Of a DNA stretch of 64,000 nt, positions 1 to 9,615 are shown one piece after another. The notes under the pieces are model-generated. The model was given only the letters and a program-made list of their open reading frames with translations, ran no database searches and was not told where the DNA came from. This DNA comes from Caldisphaera sp. (lineage in GTDB: Archaea > Thermoproteota > Thermoprotei_A > Sulfolobales > Acidilobaceae). The DNA lies in NCBI RefSeq assembly GCF_046536515.1, contig NZ_JAWDMQ010000001.1:20659-84658 (forward strand), written 5' to 3'. A program made the position numbers and the translations under genes. Within the stretch, counting starts at the first letter, position 1, and each line of letters opens with the position of its first letter.

Positions 1-102
1 ATTATCATTTATATTAACAATCTTGGCTTACTTTTTGTTTAAAAATAAATATCAGATAAAGATATAAACATAACTATAGACTATTTTCTAGAGGGGAAAT
101 AA

Positions 103-1359
103 ATGGGCAAGGTAGCATTGGTTAATGGCCTTGTTTTTGACTCAACAAGAAAACCTGTTTTTAAAGGAAATATTTTAGTTAATAATGGAAAAATTGAAAA
201 AGTTGGAAAATCAAATGAAATATCGATTCCTGATGATTATAATGTAATTGATTTAAAGGGTAAATTTATTATGCCTGGCTTAATAGATGCTCATCTCCAT
301 TTAACAGGAAGCAGAAGCGGAAAAGTAGAAGAAGACTTAATAACACCAATAGGTGTATTTTTTGCAAGAGCTATTAAAGATTTAGAGTCAATTATTGATG
401 CAGGCTTTACAACTGTTGTAGATGCAGGAAGCATAATAGCCCTCCAGCTGAAAGATGCAATTAATGAAAAAACAATAATGGGACCTAGAATTATTGCAGC
501 AGGTCCGGTTTTATCTCAGACTTTTGGACATGGAGACACGCATTATATGCCAATAGAATACGTTGATTATAGAACAACGAAAAAATTAACTCCTTTTACT
601 TCTTTAATTTGTGATGGATCAGACGAATGTAGAAAAGCAGCTAGATATGCATTTAGAGAAGGGGCAGACTTCATAAAAGTAATGGCTTCTGGAGGAGTAT
701 TATCACAAAGAGATAGACCAGAATATAGACAATTTACTTTGGAAGAACTTAAGGCTATTGTGGATGAAGCTAATGCTGTAGGGAAATGGGTACATGCTCA
801 TGCAGAAGGAAAGATAGGAATAATAAATTCAGCGAAGGCAGGAATAAAAGTAATAGCTCACGGTGATATGATGGATGAAGAAGCGGCAAATGAAGTTTTA
901 AAAGCAGGCAGTGTAGTAATTCCAACATTTGCAATTGATTATGCTTTATTAGAGAAAGGAAGCGAACTGGGTGTACCTGAATGGGGTATGAAAAAAATAA
1001 AAGAATTATATGAGATACATGTTGAAAATGCTAGACTAGCATATAAAATGGGAATTAAGCTAGCTACTGGAACGGACTTTTCTGGTGGGGTAGGAAAACA
1101 TGGAGATAATGCTATGGAATTAAAACTTTTTGTAGAAAAAATTGGTATGAAAAATGAAGAAGCATTAATTTCTTCAACTAAGATTGCTTCGGAAGCAACT
1201 GGGTTAGAAAAATTAATAGGGACAATAGAAGAAGGAAAGATTGCAGACCTAATTGTTATTAATGGAAACCCTCTGGATGATATAAACGTATTACTAAATA
1301 AAAATAACATACAACTTGTTATGAAAGAAGGTGAAATATATAAAAATAAACTTATGTAA
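103..1359 (+). CDS. Metal-dependent amidohydrolase (Xaa-Pro dipeptidase-like subgroup)
   Basis: DAHLH (HxH), KVMASGGV, HAHAEG, IAHG and ATGTDF motifs of the amidohydrolase TIM barrel; N- and C-terminal beta-sandwich segments. Confidence 0.85.
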   Translation: MGKVALVNGLVFDSTRKPVFKGNILVNNGKIEKVGKSNEISIPDDYNVIDLKGKFIMPGLIDAHLHLTGSRSGKVEEDLITPIGVFFARAIKDLESIIDAGFTTVVDAGSIIALQLKDAINEKTIMGPRIIAAGPVLSQTFGHGDTHYMPIEYVDYRTTKKLTPFTSLICDGSDECRKAARYAFREGADFIKVMASGGVLSQRDRPEYRQFTLEELKAIVDEANAVGKWVHAHAEGKIGIINSAKAGIKVIAHGDMMDEEAANEVLKAGSVVIPTFAIDYALLEKGSELGVPEWGMKKIKELYEIHVENARLAYKMGIKLATGTDFSGGVGKHGDNAMELKLFVEKIGMKNEEALISSTKIASEATGLEKLIGTIEEGKIADLIVINGNPLDDINVLLNKNNIQLVMKEGEIYKNKLM

Positions 1360-2245
1360 TCTTGAAAAATTTTAAATTTTTATTATATTTTTAAACATTT
1401 TTAAATTAATAGGAGTTCCTTATATATTTTATAATGTTTTCGTATATACTATACTAACAAAATATTAGCAAAATAAATACATTTAAAAAATAATTTTAGA
1501 TAATTAGTATAATTTAGGTGTGCCTAAAAATGGAAAAATATAAATTATTCTGTATATTAGGATTATGTATTCTATTATTATTTTCTATGCCTTTTGCTTA
1601 CTCTAAATCGGGAACTTCCAAATTTATAATCAATCAAACTACATTTAACCTCACCCCAGGTCAAAAAATAAGCGAAGAGTTCCAGCTAATTTTAAGTAGC
1701 GGAAGTACATGGGGCACAAGCATTGTTGTTTCTCCTTCTATAACTGGAATATCAATAATATTTAATCCAAGTAGTGGCGATCCAACTTTTTCTGGTACAT
1801 TAACCATATCGGTTTCAAACAATACTAAGCCAGGAGAATATATATTTAATGTAAGTGCAACTGGAGACGTTCCAACTACTTCTCCAACAACAATTATAGT
1901 TTATGTAAGTTCTCCAGCAGTTACTACAACAACGACTTCAACAACGACTTCACCTCCTCAAACAACATCATATACCTCTCCTACAACTCAAACCGGAGTT
2001 ACTTCAACAAGTCAAAAACATAATAATTATTTTTCATATGTCATAATTATAATGATATTATTAGCTATTATAATAGGGAGTTCATTATATTATACTAAAG
2101 GATTAAAAGCAAACAAATTTGCTATGACAGGCTTATCTGTAATTAGCGTTATATTATCACTTTATCTAATTGTTGCTGATTCAACATTAAGAAATTTTGC
2201 AGCTATTCATTATTATTTGCTTATTATATATACTATAGTATTGAT

Positions 2246-2546
2246 AAAGCAAACGACAAACCTTCCCCTTCTAGGGGCGAGGTAAAGTTTTTTAAGTTTA
2301 GAAACTTATTAAAAATTGAGACAGTTGCTAAAGGGGTATGCGTCACTGAAACATGAGGTACGCCTCTACCCCAACTAACAAGTGTAATAAAATAGGGTTC
2401 CAAGCCGATCAACTCTTAAGGCATGAGGAGCGGGAGCCGATTTCTCCCGCAATATCGGCTTGGAGGATAATAGAGTAGCACCCGTAAAAGGGGTGTAACC
2501 CTTGAGACCTCAGGAAACTCGCCCTTCAGGGCGGGGAGGAGGTCAG
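2246..2546 (+). mobile_element. Non-autonomous IS200/IS605-family miniature element (no tnpA/tnpB)
   Basis: Inserted 3' of TTGAT (2241-2245) with no target duplication. Left-end hairpin CCCCT-TCT-AGGGG. Right-end hairpin CTCGCCC-TTCA-GGGCGGG followed by GAGGAGG-TCAG. GC-rich against an AT-rich background. Excision restores the host ORF. Confidence 0.85.
2301..2313 (+). promoter_or_regulatory. Putative BRE/TATA promoter inside the mini-element
   Basis: GAAAC-TTATTAAA lies about 20-27 nt upstream of the first GC-rich stem (GGGGTA, 2333). Confidence 0.4.
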
Positions 2547-2562
2547 AGCATTAAATCCAATC
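2333..2562 (+). ncRNA. Putative TnpB omegaRNA/reRNA scaffold plus about 16-nt flank-derived guide
   Basis: Stems GGGGTA/TACCCC (2333-2338/2367-2372), TCCAAGCCGAT/ATCGGCTTGGA (11 bp; 2399-2409/2454-2464), GCGGGAG/CTCCCGC, GCACCC/GGGTGT and the RE hairpin. Position at the IS605 right end matches TnpB guide RNAs. Boundaries inferred. Confidence 0.6.
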
Positions 2563-2876
2563 ATGTATATTACAAAAGAAGAGATTAGTTTTACTTTGTT
2601 TAGCATTATTACGGGTTTATTTTTTATAGGTATGCTTATAGATTCACTTATGGGTATGCCCTTTTCATCTTTAGAAAATGTTGGTAGCGGATTTAGTTTA
2701 AATTATTTTTATGGTTTTGGAATGAATGGATTATCAAATTTTTCAATTTCATTTGTTTTTTCTTCTTTATTAATAGTAACGTTTCTTATATTAATTATTG
2801 GCATAATAAGTGTTGTCAAATCAAAAAATTCCGCTAATGTTTGATCATGAAAAAAGATAAAAATTTAATTATTCAA

Positions 2877-3257
2877 TTAATACGAGCATTTATTTATATT
2901 AATTTTTCTAAATAAATTATTTACAATCTTTTCATTCACTTTTTTCCCATGAGGTCTTAAGCCTCCAGTAAAGCTTGAGGGAATATGCAACAGTTCATGA
3001 ATTATTACCTTTACTTTTTCTTCCTTTGATAAAATATCAAATCTTTCACTTACTACTTCAATCACATAGATAGGCTGTGATTTTAATGCGAATCTAATGG
3101 CTGATGGTATGGAATAAATCCTTGCAAAAGCCCTTGTTTTTGCATTATAGCTCCTAATAATATAAACATATTCAAGTTTAATATAATCTAATTTTAAGTC
3201 ATTTACAATGCATTCCATTAAATTTTCTAAAAATTTATCATTTTTGTATGTTATCAT
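2877..3257 (-). CDS. Small putative metallopeptidase (HExxH)
   Basis: IIHELLHIP zincin motif in a 126-aa protein; probably co-transcribed with the M20 gene. Confidence 0.7.
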   Translation of the reverse strand: MITYKNDKFLENLMECIVNDLKLDYIKLEYVYIIRSYNAKTRAFARIYSIPSAIRFALKSQPIYVIEVVSERFDILSKEEKVKVIIHELLHIPSSFTGGLRPHGKKVNEKIVNNLFRKININKCSY

Positions 3258-3259
3258 TT

Positions 3260-4519
3260 CTATCTTAACCTTAGCATTATATAAGCAAAAACTTTTGAGT
3301 CATTAATTAAATTATCTATAATAGAATATTCATTAGGCTGGTGTGCGACATCATCATGGGTTGACCAAACAACAGCTTCATAATTATACGCTCTCAAAAA
3401 TGATGCAAAAGTTATACCTCCAATGCCTCCAACAATAGCATCTTTATTTCTTAATTCTTTAATAGTTTTTTTAATTTCTAAGACTAATTTATTATCGGTA
3501 CTTGTTGGCTTAGGAGAATCGTTTTTATCTATTATTTCAAGATCTATTATAGGAAATACTTTGTCTTCTATAATTTTTTTGCTTTTTTCTTTTAACTGTT
3601 CAATGGTTTCGTTAATTTCACTTAATACACTATCCAACTTATAATCTGGAATAACTCTACAATCAAAAGTAACTTCATGAAATCCTGGTATAATGTTTGG
3701 TGAAGAAGAGCTTCCTTTTACCATTGTAGGTTCAAAAGTAGACTCAGGAGGATCAAACAAATTATTTGTTTTATTAAACTTTTTGTGAAGTCTATCATCT
3801 ATTTGTTTGGCTAATTCAAGTGAAATCCTATGTGCATTTAAACCTAAATGTGGTGTCGAAGCGTGTACCTGTTTGCCTTTTATTATTAGTCTAAATTGTA
3901 ATATAGATTTTTCAGCTATTTCAATAAAAGTTCCATCTTTATTACCTGCATCTGGCACCAAATAGTAATCGTCTTTATTAAAAAGATAGTTATGGTTTTC
4001 TAACAAGTATTTCATTCCATATTTAGATCCGGCCTCTTCATCGCTTACAAAAGCTAGCTTTATTGTTAATCTTGGACTAACTTTTTTATTCATTAGAGCC
4101 TTTACTGCATATAAAGATGATATAAGTGATTGTCCATTATCTTCAGAGCCCCTAGCATATATTTTGTTGCCTATGATCTTTGGTTCAAAAGGCTTTGTTA
4201 TAGTCCAATCCAGCATATTTCCAGGTGGTACTACATCGATATGGGTAATTATCCAAAGAGCCTTGCTATCTTCGCCTTTATAAGTTGCTATTATGTTTGG
4301 TCTAACTTTATCTTTAGCCCTATTATCAGTAGAATAAAACTTTTCTATTTTATCGAAATTAAATTCGTTGTTTAAAATTTCTATGAGTTTGTTAGCTTTA
4401 TCAATTTCCCCTTCTCCGCCAAAATCGGGACTTATAGCAGGTATTTTTAGAAGATCTATAAAAGATTTAATCGCATCATCCTTTATTTTTTCAACTTCTT
4501 CTAAAACTAAGCTCTCCAT
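3260..4519 (-). CDS. M20 family metallo-hydrolase (DapE/ArgE-like)
   Basis: THIDVVPPG, RGSEDNG, DEEAGS, AEKS and HQPNE motifs. Confidence 0.88.
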   Translation of the reverse strand: MESLVLEEVEKIKDDAIKSFIDLLKIPAISPDFGGEGEIDKANKLIEILNNEFNFDKIEKFYSTDNRAKDKVRPNIIATYKGEDSKALWIITHIDVVPPGNMLDWTITKPFEPKIIGNKIYARGSEDNGQSLISSLYAVKALMNKKVSPRLTIKLAFVSDEEAGSKYGMKYLLENHNYLFNKDDYYLVPDAGNKDGTFIEIAEKSILQFRLIIKGKQVHASTPHLGLNAHRISLELAKQIDDRLHKKFNKTNNLFDPPESTFEPTMVKGSSSSPNIIPGFHEVTFDCRVIPDYKLDSVLSEINETIEQLKEKSKKIIEDKVFPIIDLEIIDKNDSPKPTSTDNKLVLEIKKTIKELRNKDAIVGGIGGITFASFLRAYNYEAVVWSTHDDVAHQPNEYSIIDNLINDSKVFAYIMLRLR

Positions 4520-6562: not shown

Positions 6563-8461
6563 TCAGCTACCACTCATCGCTTTTTTAAATTCTTCGTATC
6601 TTTTTCTTAAATCTTCAAAAGCTACTGGATCGTCAAGCGTTGATAAATCTCCTAAAGGCTCGTTTCTAACAGTTGCTCTTAATAATCTTCTCATAATTTT
6701 ACCACTCTTTGTCTTTGGTAACTTGTTAACAAAAACAATGTAATCTATTATAAAGCCAGAGTTCTTTGCATATTCTTTTAATTGATTAGATAACTTTTCA
6801 TCTGGTGTATAACCTTTTCTGGGGACAACAAATAGCAATAATTTTTCTCCTTTTCCTTCAAACGATGGCATGCTTGTTGCTGCAACTTCAGCAACTGCTT
6901 GATGGTTTCCTATTAAGCTTTCAACTTCCATAGTACCTACTCTTTCACCACCTGGTTTCAGAACGTCATCAGCTCTACCTAATACAAACAAATACCCATC
7001 TGAATCCATGTACCCATAGTCTCCAAAGAATACGTAACCTGGGAATCTTGATGTATAGACTTTACTATATCTTTCCAAATTTGGATCATTCCACATTTTT
7101 CCTAATGCTGGAGAATAAGGTTTCAATACTATATAACCTTTTTTACCTGGAGGTAATGGAGTTCCATCATCATCAACTATTACTACTTTACTTAATGGAA
7201 ATTCAATACCTGCAGAACCTGGCTTAAACGGTATTTCTCCTATTCCGTAAGGAGTTGCTGCTGCAGGTGATAAATGCTCTGTAAACCAATAAGCATCACC
7301 TATATATACATCAGGCAATTGTTCTCTAAACCAATTAAAGAATCCTACATTTAAAGTTTCCCCGGTATTGAGAACTATTCTAAGTGATGATGTATCTCCG
7401 GCTTTAACTGATTCTTCTCCTAAGCTCTTTAATGCATAAAGTGAGGTAGTTGATTGCCATACTAAGGATACATTAAACCTCTCTACAATTCTAGACCACA
7501 AATCCGGTTTAGCTCCAATATAGCCTTCAAATAAAACTGAAGTGATTCCGGAAACTGGAGCTGTGTAAAGGTTTGCCATAGGCCATACCGGCCAACCTAA
7601 TGCCGAAACAGTCCACCAAACATCATTAGGTCTCAAATCATATAATCCTCTAAAGGTCCAATTTAATGATAATGGGTATCCTATTTGTGTTTGTGTAATT
7701 CCTTTAGGCTTTCCGGTCGTACCGCTAGTATAGTAAATTGTTCCTACTTCATTAGCTTCTACTGGTTCTGGAGGAACGTAAACTTTACCTTTAGGAGCTA
7801 TATCCTCGTAAACAATATCTCTATTTTGTTTTAATGAAAAGTTTGTAAAACCTCTGCTAACAACTAAAACTTTTTCTATAGGCAAGTTAAATTTATTAGC
7901 AACATTATCAAAGTAGTTCTTGATATTAATTTCTGAACCTGCGTTTATAGTATTACCAAATACAACAGCATATTTTGATCCTGTATCAACAAATCTGGTT
8001 GCAATTATTTCATCAGTTAAACCGACATAATGTATTACAGCTATAGCTCCTAACCTATGAACAGCAAGTCCAAATATAACTGCCTCTGGAGAACTAGCCA
8101 TGAGCATTGATACAGTATCTCCATGTTTTACTCCCATTTCTTTTAAAACATAAGCTGCCCTGTTTACCTCATAATATAAATCTTGATATGTAATGGATTT
8201 TGTATTTCCCTTCTCGTCCATCCAATAAAATATTACTTTGTTTGCTTCATTAGGCAAATGCCTATCAACAGCATTATATGCTAAGTTTGAAATTCCCCCA
8301 ACAAACCACTTTTCAAAAGGTGGTGTTCCTTCCAAAATTTTTACTGGCTCTTTAAACCAAGTCATTAAATTCATTCTGTCGCGCCAAAATTTCTCCGGAT
8401 TTTCTAACCCCTCTTGGTTCATTTTCCTTATTTTTTTATAAGAAAATAACTCCCCTTCCAC
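6563..8461 (-). CDS. Acetyl-CoA synthetase-like AMP-forming ligase
   Basis: YYTSGTTGKPKG, DAYWFTE, GRADDV and LPKTKSGKIMRR. Confidence 0.88.
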   Translation of the reverse strand: MEGELFSYKKIRKMNQEGLENPEKFWRDRMNLMTWFKEPVKILEGTPPFEKWFVGGISNLAYNAVDRHLPNEANKVIFYWMDEKGNTKSITYQDLYYEVNRAAYVLKEMGVKHGDTVSMLMASSPEAVIFGLAVHRLGAIAVIHYVGLTDEIIATRFVDTGSKYAVVFGNTINAGSEINIKNYFDNVANKFNLPIEKVLVVSRGFTNFSLKQNRDIVYEDIAPKGKVYVPPEPVEANEVGTIYYTSGTTGKPKGITQTQIGYPLSLNWTFRGLYDLRPNDVWWTVSALGWPVWPMANLYTAPVSGITSVLFEGYIGAKPDLWSRIVERFNVSLVWQSTTSLYALKSLGEESVKAGDTSSLRIVLNTGETLNVGFFNWFREQLPDVYIGDAYWFTEHLSPAAATPYGIGEIPFKPGSAGIEFPLSKVVIVDDDGTPLPPGKKGYIVLKPYSPALGKMWNDPNLERYSKVYTSRFPGYVFFGDYGYMDSDGYLFVLGRADDVLKPGGERVGTMEVESLIGNHQAVAEVAATSMPSFEGKGEKLLLFVVPRKGYTPDEKLSNQLKEYAKNSGFIIDYIVFVNKLPKTKSGKIMRRLLRATVRNEPLGDLSTLDDPVAFEDLRKRYEEFKKAMSGS

Positions 8462-8608
8462 CTATTTTCACCTTGTACACATTATAGTATTTGATCTTGA
8501 ATATTTAAATTTTCCCACATAGTTCCTACTATACAAATTGCTTATATAGTAGATTTAGAAATTAATAATAATTAAAAAATAAATATAGCATAATAAAAAT
8601 TAAATAAA

Positions 8609-9064
8609 TTAACTTAATTCAAAATATTTTATATCGTTTATAGTTCCTTTTCTTTCATTAGTTGGCCTAAATACAGGCTTTAGCTTTATACCAATTTCTA
8701 GCTTATCTAACGGCACGTTTAATAGGTGTATTAATCCTGTTTCTGCGTTTTTAGGTTTAACTACACCTACTATTCTGGGACTAGATAAATTATTTTTGTA
8801 CATATCTTGGTATACTATTGTATATGAAACTAAGATCCATTCATCATTTATTTCTACTAGTTCTCCTTGAGTGAAATCAGGGCAAAACGTTTTTGGAGGG
8901 ACATATATTTTATCATGGCATTTCATACCAAGTATTTTTCCTTCCTTTAATCCTTTAGCGAATTCTAGTCCATGAATACCTGGTGTATATACATATTTTT
9001 CAACTTCTTGTTCTCCTGGAAATATAACTAAATCCTCCATCCTATTTCTTTTATCATAACTCAT
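8609..9064 (-). CDS. DUF35 OB-fold/Zn-ribbon protein (partial Cys set)
   Basis: GKILGMKC...YVPPKTFCP plus OB-fold; adjacent to thiolase genes. Confidence 0.8.
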   Translation of the reverse strand: MSYDKRNRMEDLVIFPGEQEVEKYVYTPGIHGLEFAKGLKEGKILGMKCHDKIYVPPKTFCPDFTQGELVEINDEWILVSYTIVYQDMYKNNLSSPRIVGVVKPKNAETGLIHLLNVPLDKLEIGIKLKPVFRPTNERKGTINDIKYFELS

Positions 9065-9075
9065 ATCATATCACC

Positions 9076-9615
9076 TCATAATGGCTCAAAACATTCTATA
9101 TCTAATATGCTTCCCGTTCTTTCCTCTTTAGGTTTCCACTTCACTTTAACTTTCATGCCTATGGCTTTTCCGCTTATTACATCTTGAGGATCAACGCATA
9201 TTTTATGGAAAAGTCCTGCAAATTCATATTCTCCATCTCTGTAACCAGGAACATCAAGTTTTATAGTTCCTACAACTTCAGGCTTTTCTATTTTTTCTCT
9301 TTTTGTAGATATATAAGTAATTACAGCTGTGTGAATTTCTCCTGTTTGGGGCACTTCGACCCATTCGTTTGTTGCAACATGGCACCACTCGCAATAAGAC
9401 CTTGGAGGTACAAATATTCTACCGCACTTTGGACATTTCCTTCCTAATATTTTTCCTTCTTTTAATCCCTGTAAGAACTTCGATATTGTTGTTCCAGCTG
9501 CAAAATCATATTTTGCTTGAGGCATATCTTCAACTAGACCTATAAGGGAATACATCTCATTTTCTTTAAGTTTTATTCCAGGTAACTTATTTATCTTAGA
9601 GCTCATATCATACAC
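9076..9615 (-). CDS. DUF35 OB-fold/Zn-ribbon protein
   Basis: CPKCGRIFVPPRSYCEWC four-Cys ribbon plus OB-fold. Confidence 0.85.
   Translation of the reverse strand: MYDMSSKINKLPGIKLKENEMYSLIGLVEDMPQAKYDFAAGTTISKFLQGLKEGKILGRKCPKCGRIFVPPRSYCEWCHVATNEWVEVPQTGEIHTAVITYISTKREKIEKPEVVGTIKLDVPGYRDGEYEFAGLFHKICVDPQDVISGKAIGMKVKVKWKPKEERTGSILDIECFEPL

Follow-up and report, generated by a model that had tools for sequence, protein, structure and literature searches.

A protein-less IS200/IS605 mini-element of a Caldisphaera-like archaeon, with a recombinant make-up and a predicted 80-nt TnpB guide scaffold

The window analysed here is a stretch of 64,000 nucleotides from a Caldisphaera-like archaeon, and the locus of interest lies near its start, where a gene for a membrane protein is interrupted by an element of 301 bp at 2246-2546 (Table 1). 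An open frame at 1518-2285 runs into the element and the reading frame picks up again at 2563-2844; when exactly the 301 bp are removed, the two join into a single frame of 341 codons for a membrane protein, and an intact protein of 337 residues (P0001) is 99% identical to this joined frame. The next relative of the interrupted protein is Calag_0122 of Caldisphaera lagunensis, with 61% identity. Uninterrupted loci are found in two public metagenome (ENA) assemblies (L131 and L132), where the empty allele reads ..CTATAGTATTGAT|AGCATTAAATCC.., with the junction also given as ..GTATTGAT|AGCATT..; the edges of the element in the window read TTGAT|AAAGCAAACGACAAACCTTCCCCTTCTAGGGGCGAGG ... CTCGCCCTTCAGGGCGGGGAGGAGGTCAG|AGCATT. 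The neighbouring genes encode an amidohydrolase (103-1359), a small protein with a PhageMetallopep domain (2877-3257) and an M28/M20 peptidase (3260-4519), and the synteny around the interrupted gene is identical in both metagenome loci.

Table 1. Features of the element and its surroundings in window coordinates, followed by the segments of the element (numbered from its first base) as compared with the tnpB-bearing parent.
Feature	Position	Strand	Remark
Target and presumed TAM, TTGAT	2241..2245	+	abuts the 5' edge of the element; conserved core TGAT
Left end, AAAGCAAACGACAA followed by a subterminal hairpin (2260-2283)	2246..2283	+	homologous to parent 1-48; DNA fold
Promoter region, TTTTTTAAG box (2288-2296) and CTTATTAAAAATT box (2305-2317)	2284..2317	+	layout as in the parent's tnpB promoter
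Leader, hairpin GGGGTA..TACCCC at 2333-2372	2318..2398	+	absent from the A-type parent
11-bp stem (2399-2409 with 2454-2464) around a 46-nt tnpB 5' piece (2409-2454)	2399..2464	+	TCCAAGCCGAT pairs perfectly with ATCGGCTTGGA
Hairpin GCGGGAG-CCGATTT-CTCCCGC inside the tnpB 5' piece	2430-2450	+	
Parent's last 80 nt: final 10 tnpB codons, stop, right end	2467..2546	+	99% identity
Scaffold helices: H1 2472-2502 (GGAGUAGCACCC / GGGUGUAACC); H2 2506-2511 with 2539-2544 (GACCUC / GAGGUC); H3 2518-2535 (right-end hairpin, UUCA loop)	within 2467..2546	+	
Predicted guide, AGCAUUAAAUCCAAUCAUGU	2547..2566	+	placed by the established TnpB/omegaRNA layout; would need read-through of the right end
Membrane-protein gene split by the element	1530..2844 (1530-2245 plus 2547-2844)	+	joined flanks form one frame
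Parent's left end and TTTTTTAA box	element 1-50		
No parent counterpart	element 51-163		
Parent 99-144, codons 6-20 of tnpB	element 164-209		96% identity
Element-specific segment	element 210-221		
Parent's last 80 nt	element 222-301		99% identity

An earlier note on this DNA had listed a TTGAT motif immediately 5' of the element, a left hairpin with CAAA at its foot, a TATA-like box, nested stems including a perfect one of 11 bp, a right-end hairpin and a terminal TCAG, and all of these proved to be in place. The 5' foot of the left-end hairpin carries ..GACAAA.., both promoter boxes are A/T-rich and TATA-like, the right-end hairpin reads CTCGCCC-TTCA-GGGCGGG and TCAG closes the element at 2543-2546. 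Folded as RNA, the stretch from 2317 to 2546 reaches -91.2 kcal/mol (z = -5.07), and none of 200 shuffled sequences folds as well. The absence of an ORF and of a target-site duplication was likewise borne out: the element has no conserved ORF, its frames of 41 and 59 aa being chance ones that indels break in other copies, and in a direct comparison occupied and empty alleles differ by exactly the element, with no target-site duplication. Its ends, AAAGCAAACG.. and ..GGAGGTCAG, do not form inverted repeats; with neither terminal inverted repeats nor a target-site duplication, the element was rejected as a MITE in the strict sense. It is a non-autonomous IS200/IS605 element, that is, a PATE (loosely, a MITE), and its G+C content is 47%, as against 32% for the genome.

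A BLASTN search of the element's own assembly (1.52 Mb, 97 contigs, 99% complete) returned about 29 full-length copies of 286-306 bp with 86-96% identity, all in different flanks. Dispersed copies following TTGAT had been expected; the copies are there, but only TGAT is the conserved target, preceding 27 copies out of the 28 whose 5' flank could be scored (TAAT precedes the other), and position -5 is variable. All full-length copies terminate in ..GGTCAG and none shows a target duplication. Four of the 29 are intragenic, and few copies besides the one in the window destroy a gene. Diversity among copies is highest in the left end (2246..2283; pi 0.227), mostly through indels in the hairpin.

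When public metagenome contigs were searched with the element's leader, 64 stretches from the same population were obtained, with flanks 97-100% identical. A copy of the same family (family A) follows ..ATAATGAT in metagenome contig L100 at a site that is empty in the own genome (C46:1185|1186); conversely, L104 and L082 carry the empty alleles for two own-genome copies, C48:4454-4754 and C42:2271-2568 respectively, and a copy of a second family, B, follows ..TTTAC in L128 at a site that is empty in the own genome (C4). Presence/absence polymorphism without duplication is thus seen at the window site, at three more family-A sites and at one family-B site. The element has recently been mobile, and it inserts exactly 3' of TGAT without duplication. 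Among 201 genomes of the order, the parent's right end was found and the full element never. In many of the metagenome contigs (L070, L077, L079, L087, L091, L093, L097, L113, L116, L117 and L123) the sequences to the left and right of a mini-element lie on separate contigs of the own genome, which may reflect chimeric assembly across the repeat, or else genuine rearrangement where copies have recombined. The whole genome (1.52 Mb) holds 109 right-end-like sites (GGGCGGGGAGGAGGTCAG, at most two mismatches) and 77 matches to the covariance model described below. Ends of the IS200/IS605 type are a major repeat class of this genome and, because many contigs end in them, are probably a cause of the fragmented assembly.

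The left and right ends of the element also occur about 1.5 kb apart, at six places in the genome, with a single gene between them. This gene encodes a protein of 455 aa with the Pfam domains OrfB_IS605 and Cas12f1-like TNB, and hence a TnpB, which has 13 matches in the genome, among them several intact frames, three with one stop and some that are cut by contig ends. The element shares 82% identity with this parent in the left end and 99% in the last 80 nt. An autonomous parent with the same ends and both tnpA and tnpB had been anticipated; the tnpB parent exists, with intact copies, but it is tnpB-only (IS1341-like) and carries no tnpA. The idea that the element lost both genes has to be amended in the same way: the element is protein-free, it would need TnpA in trans and one intact Y1 tnpA is present, but with a tnpB-only parent tnpA was never lost. 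This sole intact Y1 tnpA of the genome, with HUH and Tyr motifs, lies on contig C56 in an IS605-like element of about 1.8 kb (C56:3427-5215, L018) together with a tnpB of 420 aa; the left end of that element follows TTAC and is of the other type, and its right-end hairpin and tail are nearly those of the parent. Its G+C content of about 50% in a genome of 32% suggests that it was recently imported. A second tnpA, on contig C62, is broken. Insertion sequences of 1.5 kb resembling the parent at the nucleotide level are present in MAGs of Marsarchaeota, Nitrososphaeria and Sulfolobaceae, a similarity by which the 1.5-kb IS has evidently been exchanged among hot-spring archaea.

In the parent as in the element, TTTTTTAA is followed by 20 nt and then by TTGAGA, and this identical spacing points to the parent's own tnpB promoter. 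The earlier note had credited the element with a promoter of its own; a promoter is indeed retained, but it is nothing newly acquired, since its position and spacing mark it as inherited from the parent tnpB. Archaeal promoter geometry predicts a transcription start near 2318-2320. Between 2318 and 2546 the longest run of T is at most 3 nt, with no internal T-run terminator, and the element lies in the same orientation as the gene that it interrupts.

The right end was examined with RNAalifold on the last 200 nt of 16 homologous ends from the same TnpB family, drawn from several genera. The consensus fold is restricted to the last ~80 nt, where it forms the three helices listed in Table 1; upstream of the parent's last 80 nt no conserved structure was found in these 200 nt of the 16 elements, the local stems there not being conserved by eye. 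In this fold 96.7% of cells are paired. Double changes occur in 16 cells, where shuffles give 5.4, and covariation scores 0.165, where they give 0.099; neither value was reached in any of 500 shuffles, and sliding the partner columns by 1-3 positions makes pairing fall to 45-62%. With its deletion breakpoint at position 222, the mini-element resumes the parent sequence 5 nt before H1, so that exactly the structured part of the parent's 3' end was kept. A covariance model built on 15 ends from other genomes, leaving out all own-genome sequences, matches window positions 2463-2546 over its full length with 82.5 bits (E = 1e-16), compared with 86-99 bits for the tnpB-linked copies of the own genome and about 31 bits for family B. 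The covariation that the earlier note had looked to is thus found in the parent family, and the element fits a model made without it.

What did not survive is the view of some 215 nt of nested stems as the whole guide scaffold, because the last 80 nt alone derive from the parent's right end and the rest consists of the leader, the 46-nt tnpB 5' piece and the inverted-repeat arms. As the stretch 2467-2546 comprises the 3' end of the parent tnpB and the right end and stops at the element boundary, a guide would come from the flank. By sequence, the putative guide scaffold is one of 80 nt and not of ~215 nt; the earlier claim is kept to the extent that, within the parent's 3' end, covariation supports precisely these 80 nt. 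Among 27 copies, at most one position is unpaired in H1 in 24, in H2 in 26 and in H3 in 22; deletions break H1 in 3 copies, and H3 has at least two unpaired positions in 5 (in 4 of them by deletion). Covariation among the copies themselves is weak (double changes at 3 of 56 pairs) because the copies are young, and their intact helices may merely reflect this youth. A long-range helix between GCUGCU of the leader and AGUAGC of the scaffold, proposed by RNAalifold on the copies, was rejected, as it shows 2-3 double changes and as many mismatches. Against Rfam, the element reaches 24.5 bits with HgcC (RF00062), where the gathering score is 50, and does so through the terminal hairpin only; sot0042 (RF02656) gave no match. 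The TnpB7 of Sulfolobus islandicus (SisTnpB7) loses activity when its reRNA is shorter than about 176 nt; the element keeps all covariation-supported helices, in a length of 80 nt.

The 5' part of the element has a more composite history. The 11-bp stem is formed by element-specific inverted-repeat arms that flank the tnpB 5' piece. Of 27 copies, 23 leave no more than one position of this stem unpaired, and 25 do so for the hairpin at 2430-2450. The tnpB-derived peptide of the element has no match in Pfam. In other genera the stem of the 5' hairpin is kept through a compensatory change (GCGGGGG/CCCCCGC) and wobble pairs, while loop and peptide vary, and this 5' hairpin is probably, on such comparative grounds, a functional nucleic-acid element of the parent IS family. 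It has the form GCGGGAG-loop-CTCCCGC followed by AATACC, as in the parents L017 (G000 C30), L025, L015, L009 and L010, for example, and its exact 21-mer occurs in MAGs of Marsarchaeota, Nitrososphaeria, Methanobacteriota and Sulfolobaceae.

The leader of about 80 nt is common to family B mini-elements and to chimeras, and it is the least diverse segment of the element (pi 0.067, compared with an element mean of 0.116 and 0.103 for the scaffold). Its exact 24-mer has no match among 185,579 species representatives, and it matched no Rfam family. A C/D-box sRNA was considered and rejected, there being neither a C box nor a terminal D box. Elements with a B-type left end on metagenome contigs likewise have the leader, placed in front of a tnpB that is truncated and frameshifted; it thus has the look of a 5' region from a B-type IS, and family A can be read as an A/B recombinant. 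One metagenome contig, L111 (Ga0080003_1000185), shows at about 7530-9560 a B-type element (leader and truncated tnpB) interrupted by a full A-type tnpB element in the opposite orientation, so that these elements also nest in each other.

Family B mini-elements of about 430 bp (for example G000 C5:18934-18507, C22:7362-7784 and C78:121-561) have the left end AACTGAAAGCC.., the target TTAC, the same promoter-leader cassette and a 3' part of about 220 nt with sub-threshold matches to Rfam HgcC and sot0042. The two targets might pair with left-end guides in the manner of IS608, TGAT with the ACAA at the base of the hairpin and, in family B, TTAC with AAAG; no weight is placed on such pairing here. 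Matched combinations of left end and scaffold are common (A/A, n=29; B/B, n=7) and mismatched chimeras are single, the A/B ones with decayed right ends; both kinds of chimera occur (A left end with B body, and the reverse), all with the leader (C16:19916-20344, C57:107-516, C2:5811-6107). There are in addition 18 copies of scaffold-less minis with a single hairpin, eight of A-type, six of them 45 bp long, and ten of 39 bp, each consisting of a left-end head, one hairpin and a right-end tail. The 45-bp A-type minis (AAAGCGAACGACAAACCTCGCCCTTCAGGGCGGGGAGGAGGTCAG; for example G000 C11:13697-13741 and C28:16704-16748) and the 39-bp minis (AACTGAAAGCCTCGCCCTTTAGGGCGGGGAGGAGGTCAG; C4:4432-4470 and C39:8909-8947) differ in their targets, most A-type ones following TGAT and most 39-bp ones TTAC. 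Whether by transposition or by in-situ deletion from hairpin to hairpin, the minis may have arisen in either way.

We propose that a 1.5-kb tnpB-only IS lost nearly its whole tnpB and recombined with a second family of mini-elements, and that the product would be moved, as single-stranded DNA, by a Y1 TnpA acting in trans. Transcription from the inherited tnpB promoter, together with read-through from the interrupted gene, would run across the right end into the flank, and the 3' 80 nt of this RNA with about 16-20 nt of flank would form an omegaRNA for the TnpB of the full-length copies. TnpB would then cut the empty allele at TGAT/TTGAT + AGCATTAAATCC.. (the predicted target being TTGAT + AGCATTAAATCCAATCATGT), and repair from the occupied copy would restore the element, so that the mini-element may borrow both its transposase and its homing nuclease. 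TTGAT followed by the exact predicted guide sequence is present in the empty allele. To this full model, in which TnpA-dependent mobility is joined to a transcribed omegaRNA and to TnpB homing, we assign a probability of roughly 0.55, favouring it because of the mobility of the element, its parentage, the covarying scaffold, the spacing of the promoter and the published precedent. It counts against the model that the intact TnpA belongs to an element with the other left-end type (TTAC), with similar hairpins.

The rest of the probability is unevenly divided. A real possibility, although one we put below even odds, is that the element is purely a substrate of TnpA, for which promoter, leader, hairpins and 80-nt tail are baggage, with an RNA that TnpB does not use. 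The scaffold-less minis of 39 and 45 bp are present at 18 sites, so that a scaffold is dispensable for presence at many sites, and terminal-only PATEs of 52 bp have been described (PMC3119063); to this may be added the weak covariation among copies, a scaffold diversity no lower than the element average and a scaffold far shorter than the ~176 nt needed by the Sulfolobus TnpB. Yet the breakpoint spares exactly the covarying fold, whose covariance-model score remains comparable to that of the tnpB-linked copies; the promoter architecture is kept; scaffold-bearing family A copies (29) outnumber the scaffold-less A-type minis (8); and chimeras in which left end and scaffold are mismatched are few, the A/B ones having decayed right ends.

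A role outside the transposon cycle altogether, as a host-relevant small RNA or as a mobile promoter, in which the leader or the read-out into flanking genes would matter and TnpB guidance would not, appears improbable to us. The leader is the least variable segment and common to several element families, and a PATE-derived ncRNA of Halobacterium improved growth on overexpression; but the leader's failure to match Rfam or, as an exact 24-mer, the species representatives, and its position in front of a tnpB remnant, as in a transposon 5' region, speak against such a role, and the distribution of the copies, with four of 29 intragenic and no common flank, is that of a parasite subject to purifying selection. 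That the element might be an immobile fossil, the decayed remnant of a tnpB element deleted in situ, we regard as hardly tenable: in-situ internal-deletion derivatives of the parent do exist, such as a 696-bp copy on contig C9, but 29 copies with the same breakpoints at different loci, and above all the coexistence of occupied and empty alleles at several sites, including that of the window, refute it.

With PATEs and standalone omegaRNAs already published, the element is an ordinary case, if a well-documented one; of note are its very short scaffold, the 5' hairpin that has been conserved and the recombinant, modular make-up of the families. Its value lies in being an unusually complete natural example: empty alleles from the same population fix its boundaries exactly, the guide predicted for this copy, which disrupts a gene, corresponds to sequence of the intact allele, and the parent is represented by several intact genes for TnpB. 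Derivatives that are matched, mismatched or devoid of a scaffold coexist, and they would offer a direct test of whether RNA-guided homing aids the spread of protein-less elements. One could go further and see a natural experiment in the combination of one promoter-leader cassette with two left-end types (TGAT and TTAC) and two scaffold types, by which the homing of protein-less elements is put to the test; this stronger reading we consider rather unlikely. If the pattern of combinations did reflect selection, TnpB guidance, and not just TnpA, would drive the amplification of gene-less elements, and a scaffold of 80 nt, perhaps aided by the leader and the 5' hairpin, would suffice for an archaeal TnpB. 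Should the 80-nt scaffold work, it would also be of interest for compact, thermostable TnpB editors.

The retention of scaffold and promoter, which the earlier note took to be the unusual part, has clear precedents. PATEs 'often encode omegaRNAs' that are used in trans (Meers et al., 2023, 10.1101/2023.03.14.532601), standalone omegaRNAs are active in trans according to the summary in PMC10691335 (Altae-Tran et al., 2021), and an ncRNA that stems from a PATE and bears the UUCA hairpin is both transcribed and functional in Halobacterium (Gomes-Filho et al., 2015, PMC4615843); in Sulfolobus cells, trans-expressed reRNA works, as reported by the study that set the ~176-nt limit of SisTnpB7. The sotRNA and HgcC families (RF02656, RF00062; PMC4615843) comprise RNAs from the 3' end of IS1341-type tnpB, and their hairpin at the right end, like the one described here, has a UUCA tetraloop and is succeeded by GGAGGAGGUCAG. 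The match to HgcC is better (36-43 bits) for the minis of family B and for the IS605-like element on C56 than for the element itself, which reaches 24.5 bits. SMN1 of Sulfolobus islandicus, an active non-autonomous element of ~320 bp mobilised by ISC1733 (Berkner and Lipps, 2007, in PMC3718332), is, by the description given there, alike in its size of about 300 bp, its lack of proteins, its thermoacidophilic crenarchaeal host and its dependence on a transposase of the IS200/IS605 family, and differs in host genus, which is Caldisphaera-like here. Standalone omegaRNA loci, as summarised in PMC10691335, are similarly mobilised guide loci without effector or transposase in genomes with effector-bearing copies; those were shown to work in trans, whereas the putative scaffold here is much shorter than the tested examples. 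The closest likeness is to the PATEs of Haloquadratum (Dyall-Smith et al., 2011, PMC3119063) and Geobacillus (Meers et al., 2023), which are also protein-less, lack inverted terminal repeats and target duplication, carry subterminal palindromes like those of tnpB-bearing IS in the same genome, originate by internal deletion and occupy strain-specific sites, and the 39- and 45-bp minis resemble the 52-bp terminal-only PATEs of Haloquadratum (PMC3119063). Unlike these PATEs, the element described here is recombinant, with a leader shared with a family that has another left end (TTAC) and another scaffold type, and it keeps only an 80-nt scaffold together with the 5' hairpin of tnpB.
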